A DNA stretch of 64,000 nucleotides from an uncultured Candidatus Saccharibacteria bacterium (GCA_964579635.1 CAZOFV010000002.1:1371-65370), one strand, 5' to 3'. Positions 3,411-63,510 are shown, counted from the stretch's first letter. Notes: generated by a model not told the origin, from the sequence alone. Made by a program: numbers and translations.

Positions 3411-3629
3411 GTGCATACATACTTTGTCTCGTTTTCTGTAGTGCGCACCGGCCAACCATCATACCCCGTCAACAGGATTCTCAAACGCAAAGCACCAATC
3501 GTTCTGAATTCGATGGCCGACAAGCTGAGGTTGGAAGACAGTCTGCTCAAAAATTTCTACCGCGGACACACGCGGTATGCCGGCGACAGGTGTGTGCTCT
3601 TTTCCATCCAGCGTCTGCCGCTCGCGTAA
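3411..3629 (+). CDS. GC-rich orphan small protein (72 aa) encoded antisense within the suf operon gap
   Basis: SD AAGAGGAG lies 5 nt before a GTG start; a strong terminator follows. The sequence is GC-rich compared with its neighbours. No recognisable domain. Confidence 0.45.
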   Translation: MHTYFVSFSVVRTGQPSYPVNRILKRKAPIVLNSMADKLRLEDSLLKNFYRGHTRYAGDRCVLFSIQRLPLA

Positions 3630-3655
3630 GGTCCGCGCCAGCAAACAGTCAAACC

Positions 3656-18605: not shown

Positions 18606-18707
18606 TTCAGTAAATTATTTTTAAAAAGTAGTTCAATTAAAATGCTCTACTAAATCAATTGTAAAACTTAGATTGTCTTGGGTCAATGAACATTGTTTAA
18701 ACAAGTC

Positions 18708-18752
18708 ACAATAAAAAAGACCCTGCATCTCTGTATAAGCAGATGCAGGGTC
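18708..18752 (-). terminator. Rho-independent terminator of the 190-aa GC-rich orphan
   Basis: GACCCTGCATCT...AGATGCAGGGTC hairpin with a T-run on the minus strand. Confidence 0.55.
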
Positions 18753-18792: not shown

Positions 18793-19365
18793 CTAATTTG
18801 CGCGCAACGCAGCAGGATCATTGTCGTCCCAGAAGTCGAGACCGAGCCAGTCGCTGAACCAGTACCACCTGCTGCCACTCCGGCCGAGGTAACGAACGTA
18901 CAGACTATCACCGGGGTGGCGGTAGATCGTGCCCCAGAAGAACACATACTTGCCTTTCCATTCCTCGGGAATGAGGTGCGGATGAGCGAGCAGGTAGTCA
19001 AGGATATTCGCGTTTAAGACAGGCTTGCTGACGAGTTCCTTACGGAGCTTGTTGCCTTCCATCATTTTGCCGTTCTGCTGTCCTTCGGCAAGAAAAAGTT
19101 CGATCTGTGAGGCATCAAACTTGAACTGTCCGCCCTTCTGATGCTCTTCGACTTTCCAGCCATCAGGAACGAAAGGGGCAGCATCGCAGTCGATGGTGTG
19201 TTCTACCTGCGTGATAGTGGCGTAGCCGAGCCGCACTTGTCGCACCCTGGCGAGATTACCCCCAGTTGCAAGCCAGTCGAGATCGGCGACATCGGGAATG
19301 CCGTTGCGAAGAAGAGCTTGTTTGATTTTGTAGGCAAGTCCAACATCGAGTGTGATATCACTCAT
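18793..19365 (-). CDS. GC-rich orphan protein (190 aa from the ATG at 19365; the ORF track starts at an upstream TTG)
   Basis: SD AAAGGAG lies 6 nt before the ATG. About 55% GC. W-rich C-terminus (SRWYWFSDWLGLDFWDD). Inserted between rpsP and the KH gene. No recognisable domain. Confidence 0.55.
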   Translation of the reverse strand: MSDITLDVGLAYKIKQALLRNGIPDVADLDWLATGGNLARVRQVRLGYATITQVEHTIDCDAAPFVPDGWKVEEHQKGGQFKFDASQIELFLAEGQQNGKMMEGNKLRKELVSKPVLNANILDYLLAHPHLIPEEWKGKYVFFWGTIYRHPGDSLYVRYLGRSGSRWYWFSDWLGLDFWDDNDPAALRAN

Positions 19366-19430
19366 TAGAGTCTCCTTTGCGACATCGAGTCTGTGAGTAG
19401 ACAAATAGTCGCTTTAATGCCAGCGGGCTT

Positions 19431-19628: not shown

Positions 19629-20108
19629 TTATGCAGCTGGTGCTTCTTCTGCCGGAGCTTCAACAACCACTTCTGCTTGCGCTGGGGTTTCTGCTACTAC
19701 CTCCGCCTGTGCTTCAACTGGAGCCTCTTCCACTACCGGTACTTCAGCTGGAATTTCTTCAGGAGCAGGAGTTGCGACTGGTGCTGGTGTAGGGGCTGCG
19801 GGAGCTTCTGCTTTAGCTGGTTCGTCTTTTTTGATAGGACTTTTCTTAGGCAAAACGTTTCTTTTCTTTCCATCAATAATTTTTTTCTCAACTAGGAAAT
19901 TATGCATTGTGTCTGAAGGCAAAGCTCCATGTGACATCCAATGCAAAACGCGATCAGCCTTAACAATGAAGTTGCCGAGCTTAGGTTCATAAGAACCGAT
20001 GACCTCAACGAAATTACCCGTCTTTGGGCTTTCGCGATGATCAACAACAACCACGCGGAAGTGCGGGCTGTTCTTTCGTCCTATTCTTTGTAACCTAATT
20101 TTTAACAT
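19629..20108 (-). CDS. rpsP: 30S ribosomal protein S16 with an Ala/Pro/Glu-rich C-terminal tail
   Basis: N-terminus MLKIRLQRIGRKNSPHFRVVV. The ORF track starts 12 codons earlier. The C-terminal low-complexity region (APAAPTPAPVATPAPEE...) explains the local GC rise. Confidence 0.85.
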   Translation of the reverse strand: MLKIRLQRIGRKNSPHFRVVVVDHRESPKTGNFVEVIGSYEPKLGNFIVKADRVLHWMSHGALPSDTMHNFLVEKKIIDGKKRNVLPKKSPIKKDEPAKAEAPAAPTPAPVATPAPEEIPAEVPVVEEAPVEAQAEVVAETPAQAEVVVEAPAEEAPAA

Positions 20109-20165
20109 GCAGGCAATACTAATAGAAATGGCCCGATAGGTCAAGCTTATTTTTTTAGCTTTTGT

Positions 20166-20241
20166 CTTTAAAAACGCGCATAAAACTTTGCTAAGTTTTT
20201 GCTATGCTCGTGCCGTCGCACTGCGCAATGTTTTTAAAAAC
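20166..20241. promoter_or_regulatory. Conserved structured element, copy 1 (upstream of rpsP)
   Basis: Outer inverted repeat CTTTAAAAAC/GTTTTTAAAAAC, core AAAACTTTGCTAAGTTTTT, inner hairpin GTGC-cgtc-GCAC, then TGCGCAA. Sits just upstream of a predicted rpsP promoter TTGACC-N17-TAGTAT. Confidence 0.45.
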
Positions 20242-20353
20242 AAAAGCAGGGACTAGAAAAGACAAGAATATCCTATCCAAGAGCACCCCCCTTAAAGGTT
20301 CTAATCACCCAATCTAACCAATTTTGGCCACTTTTGTGTTATGATTTGAACCC

Positions 20354-22339
20354 ATGAAAAAGCATACCGATAAACATCATAAAGTAGAGCACAAAAAGGC
20401 TCCTGTGAAAGAACACGCCCAAAAGCACCACGAACATACCGTTGAAGGCACTATCACTGTCAGTTTCAAAGGTATTGGTTTTGTTCGCATTGAAGGAGAA
20501 GATGAATCAATAGAAGTCTCTGCTAATTCACTAAATACTGCGCTTCACGGCGACCGAGTTAAGGTTTCCGTTCACGGCAAAGGACGCAACGGACAACCAC
20601 AAGGTGAAGTTATTGAAATCCTACTTAGGGCAAGATCTGGCTTTGCTGGCACCATAGAAAAAGACCGCGACGTCTATTACCTTATTCCACAAGACCAGCG
20701 TGTTTATGTTGACCTTGTTATTCCAAAAGATGATTTAGGAGAAGCAAAAGAAGGAGATAAGGTTTTTGCCGCATTCATTGAGTGGACCGATCCAAAGAAA
20801 AATCCTGTTGGTAAGGTTCTCCGTGTTTTGGGTAGACCAGGAGAACACGAGGCAGAAATGGTTGCTATCGTTTTGGAATCTGGTTTTGATACTGGTTTTC
20901 CAAAAGAAGTTGAGGACGAATCAAAAAAGCTTGAAGAAAAAGGTATTACTGAAGATGATTTAAAAGGTCGTCGTGATTTTCGCAACACTACAACATTCAC
21001 CATTGACCCAGAAGACGCCAAAGACTTTGATGACGCCATCTCAATTCAAGATTTAGGTAACAATGTTTATGAAATCGGTGTGCATATTGCTGATGTTTCC
21101 CATTATGTTCGCCCAGGAACCGAAATTGATAAAGAAGCGATGAAACGCACAACTTCTATATACCTCGTCGACCGCACAATTCCAATGCTTCCGGAAGGAC
21201 TTTCTAATGGATTATGTAGTTTAAATGCAAACGAAGACAAACTGACTTTTAGCGCCGTTTTTAAAATTGATATGCAGGGGAAAATATCTGACTATTGGTT
21301 TGGTCGCTCTGTTATAAAATCAAATAAACGCTTTACCTACGAAAATGCCCAGGAAACTATCGATCGTGGTTCTGGAGAATATTTTGAAGAACTCGTAATT
21401 TTAAATAAGATTGCCAAAAAATTAAAACAAAAACGCTTTGACGAAGGTGCCATTTCTCTTGAACAAGAAGAAGTGCGTTTTAAGTTGGATGAAACCGGGC
21501 GCCCTGTATCTATTTATAAAAAAGTTCGTGGTGATACTCATAAACTCGTTGAGGAATTTATGCTACTTGCCAACCGCGAGGTTGCCTCATTTGTCGCCAA
21601 AAAACACGAAAATGAAGATGGTGTTTTCGTTTACCGTATTCACGACGAACCAAATACAGAGCGTATCCAAAACCTCGCAATATTCGTTAAAAGCTTGGGC
21701 TATGACCTAAAAATGACCGATGGGAAAACGACACCAAGAGATATAAATAATCTTCTAGAAAAACTTGAAGGCACAAGTGTAAAAGACATGATTCAGACCG
21801 CCGTTGTCCGCTCAATGGCAAAAGCAATTTACACAACTCAAAACATTGGCCACTTTGGCTTAGGTTTTGAGTTCTATACACATTTCACATCTCCTATCCG
21901 TCGTTATCCAGACACCATGGTCCACAGACTTTTAGCACGATACTTAAACAACGAAAAAATAGACGCAAAAGAATGGAAGTTCTACGAAAGAATGTCTACC
22001 TTTTCATCACAACGAGAAAAAGAAGCATCTGATGCTGAGCGTGGCTCAATCAAATATAAACAAGTGGAATATATGTCAGAACGCATTGGGCAGATTTTTG
22101 ACGGCGTAATTTCTGGAGTTACTGAGTGGGGTTTCTACGTTGAAGAAAAAGAAACGAAATGTGAGGGTATGGTTCCGCTACGAACATTAAACGACGACTT
22201 CTATAATTTTGAAGAAAAACGCTACCGCTTGGTTGGAGAAAAAACAAAAAAAATATATTCTCTCGGAGATAAAATAAAATTCAAAGTTGAAAAAACAGAC
22301 CTTGGAAGAAAAACTATTGATTACTCTTTAGTAAGTTAG
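20354..22339 (+). CDS. rnr: Ribonuclease R (RNB family 3'-5' exoribonuclease)
   Basis: RNB catalytic domain conservation, C-terminal S1 domain, His/Lys-rich N-terminus. Confidence 0.88.
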   Translation: MKKHTDKHHKVEHKKAPVKEHAQKHHEHTVEGTITVSFKGIGFVRIEGEDESIEVSANSLNTALHGDRVKVSVHGKGRNGQPQGEVIEILLRARSGFAGTIEKDRDVYYLIPQDQRVYVDLVIPKDDLGEAKEGDKVFAAFIEWTDPKKNPVGKVLRVLGRPGEHEAEMVAIVLESGFDTGFPKEVEDESKKLEEKGITEDDLKGRRDFRNTTTFTIDPEDAKDFDDAISIQDLGNNVYEIGVHIADVSHYVRPGTEIDKEAMKRTTSIYLVDRTIPMLPEGLSNGLCSLNANEDKLTFSAVFKIDMQGKISDYWFGRSVIKSNKRFTYENAQETIDRGSGEYFEELVILNKIAKKLKQKRFDEGAISLEQEEVRFKLDETGRPVSIYKKVRGDTHKLVEEFMLLANREVASFVAKKHENEDGVFVYRIHDEPNTERIQNLAIFVKSLGYDLKMTDGKTTPRDINNLLEKLEGTSVKDMIQTAVVRSMAKAIYTTQNIGHFGLGFEFYTHFTSPIRRYPDTMVHRLLARYLNNEKIDAKEWKFYERMSTFSSQREKEASDAERGSIKYKQVEYMSERIGQIFDGVISGVTEWGFYVEEKETKCEGMVPLRTLNDDFYNFEEKRYRLVGEKTKKIYSLGDKIKFKVEKTDLGRKTIDYSLVS

Positions 22340-26986: not shown

Positions 26987-27886
26987 TTATTTCTTCAAAA
27001 GAACGCCTACTGCTTTTGTGATGATTGGCACAATATCATCATAAAGATTCAAAGAAGGAACTTCCGTTACAGGGAACCATCTTGAATCATCGAGTCCGCC
27101 AACTTTCTCTGTTGTAAGTGTGACAACCGGCGATTCAGCAAGATAATAACAAACCTGCTTCCTTAGCCTACCTTTTTCTGGGTCAGTTGCAAGATACTCA
27201 TTATCTCCAATTTTTTCTTTAACTGTAACTGGAATTCCAAGCTCTTCTTTGGTTTTTCGATTAACCGCTTCTTCGTCGGTCTCGCCTTCTTGCAGATGAC
27301 CCTTAGCAAGCGTCCAGTGTCCAAAAATATCGTGAACCAAAGCAAGCTGTAAAACACCGTTTCCCCAACCAAAAACAATTGCACCAATTAATTTATCAAT
27401 TGGGAGTTTTTCTATGTCTTCCGGGTCTTTGCTGTGTTTATTTTTACTCGTATCATCTTTTCCTGGTTCGCCCAACTCTTTATAGACCGCACCCAAAACT
27501 CCATTAACAAATTTTCCACTATTCTCTCCGCCAAAAGATTTTGCCAATTCAATTGCTTCGTTGATTGCAACCTTTGGTGGAACCTCGAGTCTATCTGCAA
27601 AAAGAAGCTCAAAGAGCCCTAAACGTAAGATATTTCTATCAACTGCTGCAATTCGATCAATCGGCCAAGCTGGTGCCGCTTTTTCTATAATGTCGTCTAG
27701 TGTTTTTGTACGAGAAGCAATATTGACGGAAAGTGTACGCATAAAATCTGCGTCACTTGTTCCTGGGGCAAATTCTTCAATATTTCTTTTTAAGGTGTCT
27801 TCTAGAGTATTTTCCGGCTGGCCATTAAAATCCCACTCAAAGAGGGTTTGGAGAACTATTGACCGTGAAAGGTGCCTATTAGCCAT
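26987..27886 (-). CDS. nusB: NusB antitermination factor fused to a C-terminal NUDIX hydrolase domain
   Basis: N-terminal about 140 aa NusB fold. C-terminal Nudix box GHWTLAKGHLQEGETDEEAVNRKTKEELGI. Confidence 0.75.
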   Translation of the reverse strand: MANRHLSRSIVLQTLFEWDFNGQPENTLEDTLKRNIEEFAPGTSDADFMRTLSVNIASRTKTLDDIIEKAAPAWPIDRIAAVDRNILRLGLFELLFADRLEVPPKVAINEAIELAKSFGGENSGKFVNGVLGAVYKELGEPGKDDTSKNKHSKDPEDIEKLPIDKLIGAIVFGWGNGVLQLALVHDIFGHWTLAKGHLQEGETDEEAVNRKTKEELGIPVTVKEKIGDNEYLATDPEKGRLRKQVCYYLAESPVVTLTTEKVGGLDDSRWFPVTEVPSLNLYDDIVPIITKAVGVLLKK

Positions 27887-27913: not shown

Positions 27914-28138
27914 TTATTTTACCGCCGAAGCTTTCTTAGCCTTCTTTTCTTTCTTCGCTATCTTTTTGTTTACATCAAGTACCTGGCGACCACGGTAAGT
28001 ACCGCAGTTCGGGCAGACCCGATGCGTAAGGTGCGGTGCCGCACATTTCTCGCACTTAGATAACGAACCCCCCACTAATGCGTGGTGGGAACGGCGATTG
28101 CGGGTGTGAGCCCGCGTGTGTCTCATTCGTACAACCAT
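27914..28138 (-). CDS. rpmF: 50S ribosomal protein L32
   Basis: RRSHHAL...CxxC...[13 protein letters not shown] zinc-ribbon signature. Confidence 0.85.
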
Positions 28139-28195
28139 AACTTGCGTAGTATTACAAAAAGAGACAAAAAAGTAAAGGTTTCATTTTTAAACACA

Positions 28196-28277
28196 CACCA
28201 CTAAAATACACGCGTAAAATTCTGCTGAATTTTCGCTCTGCTCGATTCGTCAATCTGCGCAAGGTATTTTAGTGGTG
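28196..28277. promoter_or_regulatory. Conserved structured element, copy 2 (upstream of rpmF)
   Basis: Outer inverted repeat CACCACTAAAATAC/GTATTTTAGTGGTG, core AAAATTCTGCTGAATTTT, inner hairpin GATT-cgtc-AATC, then TGCGCAA. Confidence 0.45.
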
Positions 28278-28311
28278 TATGCGGGGTACGGAATACGTAA
28301 AATTTATCTAA

Positions 28312-43021: not shown

Positions 43022-43684
43022 TTAGACCTTATCAGTAAACACAACAAGTCTCCTAGAATAACTTTTATCTATTTTGTTCCAAACTCCCCCACAAGTAATA
43101 AGGTTGAGGTGTGATTTACCATCATTTGAAAAAAATACTTCGTCTGTATTCGCTTTTTGGTCATAGCTTTGGATTTCTGTTACTACGAAAGTAGCGGTGA
43201 CCATGTTTTCATCCTGAACATATATCTTGTCTCCCTTCTGTAATTTATTTAAATCATCAAACACTGCTGGCTCACTGTTTTTCCAACCATAATGACCAAC
43301 AATAACAGAACTACCCTCTTCTCCCGGGCGTGGGCCCAAATTAAACCAAGCGGCGGCCGTTGGTGTTGTTGGGGCATCCACTGCTCCCTGTGGCGTAACT
43401 CCAACACCAACAAGACTTGTGTTAATGTTAAGTTTTGGAATTTTAAGATTCGTGGGAATACCGATTTTACTTTGTTCTAAAAAAACACTACTTTGGTTAA
43501 ATTCACTTGATTTTGCTTCGGTAAAATTTTTAGTATTCTGGTCGCCAGTAAATGTTGATATTTTTTTATAATAACCATTATCATCTATCCCCTCGAACAT
43601 AAAAAAGACAGTGGTCATTAAAAAAATAACTCCAATAATACCTAAACCAAATAGTAGCCACTTCATTAAAATTTTTGATTGCAT
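43022..43684 (-). CDS. Sortase-family transpeptidase
   Basis: N-terminal TM, then His (VGHYG), Cys (NLITCGG) and Arg in sortase order. Confidence 0.6.
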   Translation of the reverse strand: MQSKILMKWLLFGLGIIGVIFLMTTVFFMFEGIDDNGYYKKISTFTGDQNTKNFTEAKSSEFNQSSVFLEQSKIGIPTNLKIPKLNINTSLVGVGVTPQGAVDAPTTPTAAAWFNLGPRPGEEGSSVIVGHYGWKNSEPAVFDDLNKLQKGDKIYVQDENMVTATFVVTEIQSYDQKANTDEVFFSNDGKSHLNLITCGGVWNKIDKSYSRRLVVFTDKV

Positions 43685-43776
43685 ATTTTTTTAATTAAAC
43701 AAAGAAGGCCCCGCAAAAGCGGGGCCTTCTCCGCTCTTGGATCAAGCGCCTACGTTAATTTATAAATGTAATTAAC

Positions 43777-53814: not shown

Positions 53815-54048
53815 CTAAGACTTCTTAGCTACTTTCTTAACTGGTTCCGCTGCTGCTCTTCGCTTCTTGAATCTTTCAACGCGACCAGCGGTATCGATAA
53901 CCTTTTCGTTACCTGTATAGAATGGGTGGCAAGAACTACAAATTTCAACGTTTATCTCTGGCAAGCCAGAAGAAACGACATATGTCGCTCCACAGGCGCA
54001 AGTGGCCTTGATTTCATCGTTATATTTAGGATGGATATCTTTCTTCAT
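53815..54048 (-). CDS. rpmE: 50S ribosomal protein L31
   Basis: MKKDIHPKY... with CxCG...C..CHPFYTG. Confidence 0.9.
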   Translation of the reverse strand: MKKDIHPKYNDEIKATCACGATYVVSSGLPEINVEICSSCHPFYTGNEKVIDTAGRVERFKKRRAAAEPVKKVAKKS

Positions 54049-54104
54049 AAGCCCGTACTTTACTAGAAAGCGCTCAAATTTGCAAATGTGTCTTTTTCAC
54101 TTTT

Positions 54105-54183
54105 CCTTTTTAAAAACACGATAAAATTCTGCTGAATTTTTCTCTACTCGCGCTCATCGCGCTCCGTAAGGTTTTTAAAAAGG
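54105..54183. promoter_or_regulatory. Conserved structured element, copy 3 (upstream of rpmE)
   Basis: Outer inverted repeat CCTTTTTAAAAA/TTTTTAAAAAGG, core AAAATTCTGCTGAATTTTT, inner hairpin GCGC-tcatc-GCGC, then TCCGTAA. Sits upstream of the predicted rpmE promoter TTGCAA-N17-TAAAGT. Confidence 0.45.
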
Positions 54184-54224
54184 AAAAGTCTAGATTTTTT
54201 AAGAAAAATCAGGGTAAAAATGAA

Positions 54225-62682: not shown

Positions 62683-62770
62683 AGATTAATTTCTCCAATT
62701 GTATCAAAACATAGAACGAAAAAATAGCCCGTAAACCTTAACCTCACTTGGAGGTTGAACCTCCAAGTGG

Positions 62771-63457
62771 TTATTCTAATAAAAATTTTTCTAAGTCTTT
62801 CATGTCTTCCTTTCTTTTCCTAATCATTTCTAAAGATGACAAGGAGAATTTCTTGTATTCATCAATATTATTATTAAATTGATCTAAAATAATTTTCTTT
62901 TCACAGATACCTTTAGTATTTTTATCTATATACTCTCCCCAACTAGACCTACTTCCCGCCAACTTGGAGGTTAAACCTCCAAGTTGGTGAACTTTGTTAT
63001 TTAAATTAACGTAGGCACTAAGATGAAGAAGGTATTCATTAGTACCTACGTGAACTGATTTAAATCTACCTTGGAATAAAGCACCACTTCGTTTTTCCTT
63101 TTCATTAAAATACATTGTGTATCCTGTCCCCAGTCGATGCATAAATTTTTCAATCCCCTTTTCTGAAGACTGCATAACTATAAAATGAAAATGGTTTGGG
63201 TTAAGGCAAAAAGCTACGAAATCAACTAATTTTTGACTCCCTTTTCTCAACTTGGAGGTTGAACCTCCAAGTTGAGACTTTTTTATAAAAGAATTTTCAT
63301 AGATACTTCCTATTGGCTCAGAAACATTGAATTCAATCATGCTTTGAAAAAAGCGATTCAAATCTTTTTGATCTGAGAAAATGCTTCGTTTATCTATTCC
63401 CCTATTATAAAGATGATAATATTCACCAGTTACGAACGGAGTTTTTCTATTTGTCAT
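62771..63457 (-). CDS. IS200/IS605-like HuH transposase (REP-associated tyrosine transposase-like)
   Basis: YHLYNRG motif, HuH NHFHFIV, then QGRFKS...LSAYVNLN with the catalytic Tyr. Two in-frame QLGG(S/L)TSKL segments are encoded by the internal hairpins. Confidence 0.6.
   Translation of the reverse strand: MTNRKTPFVTGEYYHLYNRGIDKRSIFSDQKDLNRFFQSMIEFNVSEPIGSIYENSFIKKSQLGGSTSKLRKGSQKLVDFVAFCLNPNHFHFIVMQSSEKGIEKFMHRLGTGYTMYFNEKEKRSGALFQGRFKSVHVGTNEYLLHLSAYVNLNNKVHQLGGLTSKLAGSRSSWGEYIDKNTKGICEKKIILDQFNNNIDEYKKFSLSSLEMIRKRKEDMKDLEKFLLE
62959..62987. repeat. Internal copy of the hairpin repeat (29 bp) within the transposase ORF
   Basis: CCAACTTGGAGGTTAAACCTCCAAGTTGG, translated as QLGGLTSKL. 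Confidence 0.6.
63247..63275. repeat. Internal copy of the hairpin repeat (29 bp) within the transposase ORF
   Basis: TCAACTTGGAGGTTGAACCTCCAAGTTGA, translated as QLGGSTSKL. Confidence 0.6.
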
Positions 63458-63510
63458 ATATAACTGATTATTTTACTACTTGGAGGTTGAACCTCCAAGT
63501 AGTAATGTGG

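Follow-up and report, generated by a model that had tools for sequence, protein, structure and literature searches.

The 64,000-nt stretch of DNA analyzed here (CAZOFV010000002.1, positions 1371 to 65370, assembly GCA_964579635.1, assigned to an uncultured “Candidatus Saccharibacteria” bacterium), hereafter the window, contains three copies of a branched hairpin, located upstream of the ribosomal protein (r-protein) genes rpsP, rpmF, and rpmE. These hairpins belong to a family that is found in many copies per genome, has a conserved strand-specific fold, shows no bias toward a gene class or an orientation, and turns over between strains. We regard this family, with moderate confidence, as a non-autonomous, structure-dependent intergenic repeat of the REPIN or ERIC kind that is distributed class-wide in Patescibacteria/Paceibacteria. 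The r-protein identity of the genes downstream of the window copies is incidental.

The window comes from a Patescibacteria/Parcubacteria-type bacterium with 39% G+C and encodes exactly three copies of the element, each ~90 nt long and all on the minus strand (Table 1). An earlier note on this DNA had placed them at the same three sites, which was confirmed both by reading the sequence and by searches with two covariance models, R1, built from the three window copies, and R2, a broader model built from 131 relatives. With the filters off, the next best R1 match in the window after the three copies scores 21 bits, and R2 finds the same three copies and nothing further, in agreement with the note's remark that the element is seen nowhere else in the window. 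A weak match at 43684-43769 was considered as a fourth copy and rejected, being an ordinary terminator. The three copies align end to end, and the shared core described in the note is present in each of them; the length of 75 to 80 nt given there was an underestimate, since the outer stem is longer than stated.

RNAalifold folds the three copies into one common three-way junction, in which 13 of the 30 pairs are already compensated. Its parts are a long outer stem P1 (18 to 19 bp in the window copies), a hairpin P2 with a conserved internal loop (general form UUGC-[GCA]-NNNN-loop-NNNN-[GA]-GCAG), and a hairpin P3 with a bulged A. The compensation that the note had seen in the outer repeats and the small hairpin (GTGC/GCAC, GATT/AATC, and GCGC/GCGC) is evident in this fold, and the inner palindrome of copy 1, AAAACTT..AAGTTTT versus AAAATTC..GAATTTT elsewhere, is fully compensated as well. 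Of the two strands, the minus strand, on which the downstream genes are encoded, folds better; on the plus strand, the energies of copies 1 to 3 are -24, -33.8, and -29.6 kcal/mol. As indicated by the dinucleotide-shuffle z-scores of the minus-strand folds and the existence of hundreds of homologues, the window hairpins are not a product of chance.

Table 1. Hairpins of the family, inner stems of copy 2, and adjacent promoter-like sites in the window
Feature	Positions	Strand	Model score (bits)	Energy (kcal/mol)	z-score	Remarks
Copy 1, full hairpin	20158..20247	-	R1, 99.8; R2, 93.1	-29	-3.1	P1 is GCUUUUGUUUUUAAAAAC / GUUUUUAAAGACAAAAGC, with one U·G pair; three-way-junction core inside
Copy 2, full hairpin	28191..28282	-	R1, 97.7	-41.5	-7.0	P1 is GCAUACACCACUAAAAUAC / GUAUUUUAGUGGUGUGUGU, with two wobble pairs, present on the minus strand only
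Copy 3, full hairpin	54099..54189	-	R1, 92.1	-32	-6.0	P1 is ACUUUUCCUUUUUAAAAAC / GUUUUUAAAAAGGAAAAGU
P2 of copy 2	28238..28262	-				UUGC-[GCA]-GAUU-GACG-AAUC-[GA]-GCAG
P3 of copy 2	28212..28236	-				GCGAAAAUUC-AGCA-GAAUUUU-A-CGC; 10-bp hairpin, AGCA loop, bulged A
rpsP promoter-like site, outside the element	20116..20144	-				TTGACC-17-TAGTAT, from the strict promoter scan
rpmF block, outside the element	28139..28172	-				CUUUACU (-35-like) via UGUAAUAC (-10-like) to ATG
rpmE block, outside the element	54049..54087	-				From UUUGCAAA (-35-like) to ATG

Relatives were collected by scanning species-representative genomes with a degenerate P2/P3 pattern, which yielded at least 115 loci (L001 to L115); the family counts given here rest on the matches listed. 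Among these, 114 of the 115 come from metagenome-assembled genomes of Patescibacteria, with submitter labels that include Paceibacterota, Parcubacteria, Nomura-, Taylor-, Vogel-, Zambryski-, Lloyd-, Wildermuth-, and Portnoybacteria, Minisyncoccia, and “Saccharibacteria.” A pattern match in Acetobacter was rejected as a chance hit, as it had no covariance-model match. R1 recognizes 131 copies in L001 to L100 and 23 in L101 to L115, which among the matches listed makes at least 154 copies in at least 81 genomes, with at most 17 copies per genome; the orientation counts below cover 157 copies. Some 40 of the listed copies come in addition to the one ascertained per locus and are spread over 0.82 Mb, i.e., ~1 per 20 kb, which agrees with the 3 copies per 64 kb in the window. 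No Rfam family corresponds to the element: at the gathering thresholds, the whole window yields only a tRNA, and a permissive search with copy 2 gives best E-values of 2.9 to 6.6, which are at the level of chance. Likewise, there are no matches in IMG/VR, PLSDB, and INPHARED, and a phage or plasmid origin was rejected on these grounds. No description of the element was found in the literature on repeats or noncoding RNAs (ncRNAs) of the candidate phyla radiation (CPR)/Patescibacteria, and this small structured intergenic repeat appears to be undescribed.

The covariation seen in the window holds once more copies are aligned. In the alignment of 131 copies, 94.4% of the cells are in standard pairs, compared to 70.4% in shuffles, both-side changes occur in 29 of the 30 pairs, and the covariation score is 0.605 versus at most 0.109 when the partners are slid by 1 to 3 columns. 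Double changes affect all 12 P1 pairs of the model and 9 of the 10 P3 pairs, with 99.6% of the P3 cells paired. This alignment had been fitted to the model, and the test was therefore repeated on an independent one: a MAFFT alignment of 41 diverse copies, folded with RNAalifold, arrives at the same junction, in which compensation is seen for 26 of 32 pairs. The junction strands are 1, 1, and 2 nt long. Beyond the paired positions, the P2 internal loop is conserved on one side at G (91%), C (75%), and A (96%) and on the other at G (99%) and A (98%), and the GACG loop at G (95%), A (72%), C (87%), and G (73%). Both the GCA/GA internal loop (75 to 99%) and the GACG loop (72 to 95%), as well as the UUGC start of P2, lie outside the search pattern. 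The A between P2 and P3 (J2/3) and the bulged A of P3, at 98% each, and the AGCA loop lie within it, so their conservation is largely a matter of construction.

The fold belongs to one particular strand. Among isolated P1 mismatches, a strand-symmetric count gives 45 G·U versus 9 A·C, and at the base of P3, 85 sequences have a G-C pair, 38 have G·U, and none has A·C. These observations indicate that the fold under selection is that of the element's own single strand, RNA or single-stranded DNA (ssDNA). The earlier note was right in seeing a recurrent element with covarying stems, and such covariation is the signature of a folded single strand. Neighboring transcription was rejected as the cause of the wobble excess: it is found in the sense context and is retained where the element is antisense to both neighbors (12 versus 2) and between convergent (11 versus 0) or divergent (4 versus 1) genes.

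The periphery of the element is far more variable. Copies are ~85 to 190 nt long, with pairing that often continues past the ends of the model and stems that reach ~35 bp (the gapless maximum is 36 positions). The outer stem differs from copy to copy or by subfamily and stays complementary. Some subfamilies have outer modules in common; for example, GAGCGAG is present at either flank, or CUCGUCGAAAUCA ... UGAUGAGAAAGAG is extended by an additional helix of 8 to 17 bp. With such modules, whole elements measure 150 to 190 nt. A long structured extension of P2 is common to four species (L034, L068, L012, and L061), where it is A/U rich and has a GGAGG-containing tip, and other copies have different inserts at the tips of P2 or P3. 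For example, the rpsP copy at L071 4117-4203 (minus strand) has an 85-nt insert in the P2 loop that holds a second P3-like AGCA hairpin, and in two genomes (L071 2333-2440 and L086 7224-7357) the 5' strand of P2 is interrupted by a mini-palindrome rich in G+C, CUGCCCGCGUGUAC...GCGCAGGCGGG, which is duplicated in one of them.

Arms that are so nearly perfect could also arise without any function. When DNA is replicated, quasi-palindromes are known to be corrected by strand switching, and such mutation could keep the inverted repeats perfect, which would make the family inert palindromic DNA. Outer stems of 25 to 35 bp at most, nearly all Watson-Crick and different in each copy, are what such correction would leave behind. 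It leaves unexplained the asymmetric conserved core, with P2 unlike P3, the preservation of unpaired bases throughout the class, the 5:1 ratio of G·U to A·C on one strand, and the amplification to many copies, and we consider a purely mutational origin very unlikely.

In the window, the foot of the hairpin lies 49 to 52 nt upstream of the start codons of rpsP, rpmF, and rpmE (52 to 57 nt if the boundaries of the model or of the earlier note are used). Copy 1 separates rpsP from the divergently oriented RNase R gene; copy 2 is between rnhB and rpmF, ~30 nt past the stop codon of rnhB and 52 nt ahead of the ATG of rpmF; and copy 3 is between a gene for an SLT-domain protein and rpmE, 35 nt past the stop codon of the former and 50 nt before the ATG of the latter. 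The note had predicted promoters just downstream of all three copies. A strict promoter scan calls one for rpsP (Table 1), with the ATG 7 nt past the -10 box in a leaderless-type layout; the rpsP site is identical in L071 (VMEP01000001), a close relative with 96.8% RNase R identity, whose sequence upstream of it is rearranged. In the rpmF and rpmE gaps, the same scan calls no promoter, with the rpmF block falling below the threshold. However, the rpmF block is nearly identical, with a 5-nt difference within the spacer, in L116 and L117, two contigs with a canonical terminator upstream in place of the element. In rpmE, the core of the block (the -35-like box and CUUUCUAGUAAAGUACGGGCUU) is invariant in all strains while the spacer between the two varies, and a five-strain alignment becomes conserved at the -35-like TTTGCAAA, with a strongly divergent element upstream. 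The rpmF and rpmE blocks are thus candidate promoters, judging by conservation. As the segment from the -35-like box to the ATG is kept in other strains while the sequence upstream of it differs, the elements would precede the promoters rather than form part of the leaders.

The earlier note offered an r-protein regulon operator or an UP-like element as possible identities of the three copies, and a regulon leader or an activator-binding DNA element at r-protein promoters would be a suggestion of the same kind. All three precede r-protein genes while ~55 other genes of the window have no copy, the distance to the ATG is nearly constant, and in the window's lineage most copies are followed by an A-rich tail just before the -35 box. 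The suggestion does not survive comparison with the family as a whole, and we regard it as most improbable. Two further r-protein genes of the window, rpsB and rplY, lack the element, as do strains whose L32 protein is identical and whose rpmF has the same promoter block (L116 and L117). Over 157 copies, the flanking genes are both opposite to the element strand in 42 cases, both on the same strand in 37, convergent in 19, and divergent in 18, much as chance placement between genes would give. Many copies sit between convergent genes, and in half of the cases the element faces away from the closest gene start. The 103 genes whose 5' end faces an element represent 116 Pfam families, the commonest being signal peptidase (4 genes), S1 (3), and S16 (3), followed by RNB, ClpP, RRF, Pth, and ComEC with 2 each. 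The three S16 genes would fit the operator, but r-protein genes are probably no more common among the facing genes than their estimated genomic share. A site upstream of the -35 box is outside the r-protein mRNA leader, and this site, together with the orientation, also led to the rejection of a 5' leader or riboswitch. Finally, the strand-specific wobble pairs speak against an operator of double-stranded DNA. The note had named a generic intergenic repeat unrelated to r-protein genes, with identical rather than covarying termini, as the outcome of a genome-wide search that would refute its idea; the searches made here point to such a repeat, but its termini covary strongly.

The placement of the copies can be understood if they are tolerated only in dispensable DNA. 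The usual site is 10 to 60 nt from a gene 3' end, with ~30 to 140 nt left before the next start, which would be expected if, in these compact genomes, copies survived only in the stretch that separates a stop codon from the -35 box of the promoter that follows. The same restriction would account for the nearly fixed spacing between the window copies and their start codons.

The main rival explanation, which we consider less likely, is that the family is instead a multi-copy structured RNA with a cellular role, be it a small RNA or an insulator, processing site, stability element, or unconventional terminator within transcripts. A conserved protein would then bind the tip of the junction, and the long stem would serve as a double-stranded RNA target or barrier. 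Several of the observations made above suit such an RNA, including the strong covariation and the preference for G·U over A·C, which show that a single strand folds, the highly conserved unpaired nucleotides, the peripheral stems of varied length with one extended P2 in four species, and the retention of copies, with compensated stems, at orthologous gaps over deep divergence. The copies also occupy the usual sites of terminators: L116 has a canonical terminator in the element's place, and no canonical terminator is found from rnhB to copy 2 or from the SLT gene to copy 3. However, the orientation is random with respect to neighboring transcription, and the wobble asymmetry stays on the element strand even in antisense copies. 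Inspection of the flanks by eye revealed no convincing promoter motif upstream of the element, and at some loci the stem starts a few nucleotides past another terminator. Copies have been gained and lost between near-identical strains, about one-sixth of them lie between divergent genes, where termination is needless, and G·U makes up ~3% of the P1 pairs, which is low for an old RNA helix.

The identity of the element as an intrinsic (Rho-independent) terminator was rejected, as the window copies lack a G+C-rich hairpin with a U-tract. At copies 2 and 3, a scan for terminators gave no call, and in the vicinity of copy 1 it gave only short, unrelated stems; no window copy is followed by a U-tract. 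Ordinary G+C-rich terminators with U-tracts are present on the minus strand of the window at ~18700-18745 and 43690-43730 (examples are GACCCUGCAUCUG...CAGAGAUGCAGGGUC-UUUUUU and GAAGGCCCCGC-UUUU-GCGGGGCCUUC-UUUGUUU), so that the organism does not depend on the three-way-junction element for termination.

Comparison of related strains reveals turnover of the copies. At rpsP, L071 has an ortholog of copy 1, the one with the 85-nt insertion in the P2 loop, plus an extra adjacent copy whose P1 (ACACCACUAAAAUAC) is that of window copy 2 at rpmF. Upstream of its KH-domain gene, L071 carries an insertion of ~190 nt that includes an element; the window has none there, and the two sequences match again from TCATTGACC, the KH gene's -35 box, onward. 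At rpmF, contigs with an identical L32 protein have another upstream gene, a canonical terminator that abuts the same promoter block, and no element. At rpmE, all 10 places returned with an identical L31 protein (five of which were aligned) have the element in the same place and orientation, with very different, fully compensated P1 and P3 in a mosaic pattern (P1 is, e.g., CUUUUCCUUUUUAAAAAC, AUCUGCUUUUAAAAUAC, or AAUACCUUCAAAAAAC). In one strain with an identical L31 protein, L119 (positions 797-1500), the gap between the SLT gene and the rpmE element spans ~700 nt and includes an extra open reading frame (ORF) of 117 aa on the opposite strand; the DNA upstream of the rpmE promoter may thus be a hotspot of insertion. 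Copies also appear to move between loci and species. Two species (L045 and L086) share 85-nt copies that are 100% identical in unrelated flanks, and the nearest relative of a copy is found in its own genome in 36 of 100 cases, compared to 3.7 expected by chance. Head-to-head pairs, tandem pairs, and truncated 5' halves broken in the P2 loop are frequent. Insertion of the element into existing terminator hairpins was considered and rejected, as the outer arms would call for loop-less perfect palindromes as targets and as identical P1 stems travel between loci.

Taken as a repeat, the family most likely owes its persistence to mobility or recombination as a non-autonomous element. Propagation would proceed via the folding of one DNA strand or of a transcript and its recognition by a putative enzyme acting in trans. 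On this model, which presumes such an enzyme, mobility would be active and the folded strand could be either ssDNA or RNA.

Several lines of evidence weigh against this explanation. Its main weakness is that both a mobilizing enzyme and a clean insertion footprint are missing. Clustering of 853 neighboring ORFs returned housekeeping genes only, with no enrichment of a transposase, a reverse transcriptase, or any other mobilizing gene, and the census of genes around the family is based on crude ORF calls. The strain comparisons yielded no clean pair of an empty and a filled site with a target duplication, and the polymorphic sites resemble replacements rather than simple insertions. Transposons that use ssDNA and target the lagging strand usually show an orientation bias relative to GC skew. 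A replication-strand bias, as would be expected for IS200-type ssDNA insertion, was not seen with GC skew as the proxy: in the orientation of the element, the skew is positive for 75 copies and negative for 82, and the coding strand agrees with the element for 79 and disagrees for 78. GC skew is an imperfect proxy of the replication strand here because it follows the strand of the genes (r = 0.81). Copies have also been retained at orthologous gaps, such as those at lepB and between ftsZ and trxB, where the flanking proteins are 55 to 83% identical and the stems differ and are still paired. This retention, the class-wide conservation of the junction, internal loop, and loops, and the structured P2 extensions common to some species are equally typical of a functional RNA. 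Besides, the loci were ascertained through the P2/P3 pattern, so the conservation of those bases is partly by construction.

Cutting across these explanations is the tentative idea of an ancient, class-wide folded-strand replicator or RNA, whose three-way-junction tip (the GCA/GA internal loop, the GACG and AGCA loops, and the bulged A) is read by a putative enzyme or is itself catalytic. On this idea, genomes of ~0.7 Mb would harbor either a multi-copy functional ncRNA or a mobile element that works differently from RAYT/REP. Truncated and nested copies tend to be broken in the P2 loop, which hints at that loop as a point of cleavage or insertion. Truncated 5' halves, consisting of a P1 arm and the start of P2, precede complete copies at L045 7620-7645, L091 ~3610-3630, and L071 4204-4240; all three are broken in or near the P2 loop, which may be a preferred site of cleavage, insertion, or recombination.

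Resemblances to known catalytic and other RNA motifs were also examined. CGAAA and UGAUGAG flank the element in one subfamily, but their order and topology do not fit a hammerhead-like fold, which was rejected. Known self-cleaving ribozymes (hammerhead, twister, twister-sister, pistol, hatchet, and HDV) were rejected as well: there is no Rfam match at E-values up to 10, and the junction strands are unlike the hammerhead core. For the P2 internal loop, a K-turn was rejected, since the non-bulged strand fits but the bulged strand has no GA step.

Among the systems described in other bacteria, the closest parallels in behavior are ERIC sequences and REPINs, the latter being hairpins with compensatory changes and random extragenic placement (PMC3116915). 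Like REPINs and the REP-RAYT systems, the element is short, non-coding, multi-copy, and extragenic, forms long hairpins with compensatory changes in the arms, occurs in clusters, and persists in lineages over long times (PMC3116915). However, a REPIN consists of two inverted copies of one REP, whereas here P2 (UUGCGCAG..CGAGCAGAG) and P3 (GCAAAAAUUCAGCAGAAUUUUAUGC), which sit on a three-way junction, are unrelated and not mutual reverse complements, and a GTAG motif is lacking. Classical RAYT-REP systems coexist with the element in these genomes, as seen from Y1 transposase genes that have their own palindromes. The window itself encodes an IS200-like Y1 transposase of the RAYT type (62771-63457, minus strand, within the region 62747-63499; PF01797, E = 5.7e-8). 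A 21-nt palindrome, CTTGGAGGTTNAACCTCCAAG, is present in four copies, two of which flank this gene, the other two being in frame inside it (QLGGSTSKL and QLGGLTSKL). The same REP-like palindrome is found as CTACTTGGAGGTTCAACCTCCAAGTAG, with GTAG ends, in a second species (L045 7674-7694), ~90 nt from a three-way-junction element, and its 21-nt core in a third (L039 3269-3289). Y1 homologues in L014 (4892-5698) and L042 (6269-6975) are each flanked by their own, different short palindrome. The three-way-junction element does not flank the Y1 gene of the window or either of these homologues.

The ERIC (or IRU) sequences of enterobacteria are imperfect palindromes of ~127 bp that are intergenic, lie in either orientation, and have no known transposase. 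An imperfectly palindromic, intergenic make-up, conservation across a wide taxon, optional internal insertions at fixed points, either orientation, and the lack of a known transposase are shared by the two families; however, there is no sequence similarity, the host phylum is another one, and ERICs are conserved over their full length, whereas the element described here combines a branched tip with a variable outer stem. Miniature inverted-repeat transposable elements (MITEs) have terminal repeats that are read by a transposase and conserved between copies and are flanked by target duplications, and some small repeats, such as bcr1 and Correia elements, fold as RNA and affect transcripts. The element resembles MITEs (Correia/NEMIS, RUP, and bcr1) in being small, non-autonomous, multi-copy, and intergenic, with inverted-repeat ends, but its ends are variable and its center is conserved, and no duplication was found for it in the comparisons made, nor a parent insertion sequence among the 853 neighboring ORFs. 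Its flanks are inverted, not direct, repeats, and the GAGCGAG found on both sides in one subfamily could be structural. Integron attC sites have conserved R''/R' ends and a variable center and occur in cassette arrays beside an integrase. They share with the element a folded single strand that is recognized (presumably so in the case of the element), strand choice via imperfect pairing, variable length, and sometimes a branched tip; an attC identity was rejected, as the pattern of conservation is reversed and the copies are scattered among housekeeping genes. Finally, the r-protein leaders in Rfam are similar to the window copies as structured covarying elements upstream of small r-protein genes. 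They lie, however, in the 5' untranslated region on the strand of the gene and are specific to one operon, whereas the element is located ahead of the promoter, occurs in any direction and beside any gene, and has no Rfam match.

CPR/Patescibacteria genomes are among the smallest and most streamlined ones, and a repeat that makes up, by extrapolation, ~0.5% of the genome is unexpected there, as are a core conserved class-wide and the survival of copies at the same gaps over deep divergence. For annotation, this means that the hairpins should not be labeled r-protein leaders, riboswitches, or terminators; the covariance model could be used to mask or label them. The family can serve as a marker of strain-level rearrangement upstream of promoters, as a candidate substrate of a putative nucleic acid enzyme, and as a test case for REPIN-like “resident replicators” outside Proteobacteria. 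Covariation among paralogues within a single window signaled a true structure but said nothing about the function of the neighboring genes. The interest of the family, at present moderate, comes from its host, with the tiny genomes of the CPR, and from the conserved branched core; it would be considerably greater if the tip turned out to be the substrate of a new enzyme or catalytic.

Some additional features of the loci studied here are worth recording. The start codon follows a -10-like box by 7 to 10 nt, with no Shine-Dalgarno sequence, in rpsP, the RNase R gene, rpmF, rpmE, and trxB of L005 (window 20106-20144, 20329-20356, 28136-28172, and 54046-54087; L005 2665-2705); in the RNase R gene, the -10-like TGTTATGAT is followed by 8 nt to the start. 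This pattern suggests that leaderless mRNAs may be common in this lineage. A look-up of the exact S16 protein of the window found no record. Between rpsP and the KhpA-like KH gene, the window has a 203-aa ORF (18793-19404, minus strand) with no Pfam match. In contig L129, rpsP is directly followed by a terminator and the KH gene, and the ORF is missing, which indicates that it is a lineage-specific insertion, with the breakpoint again at the -35 box of the KH gene. Directly downstream of rpmF, a 299-aa protein (26987-27886, minus strand) combines a NusB domain with a NUDIX hydrolase domain, a fusion that is likewise encoded in L116 and L117.

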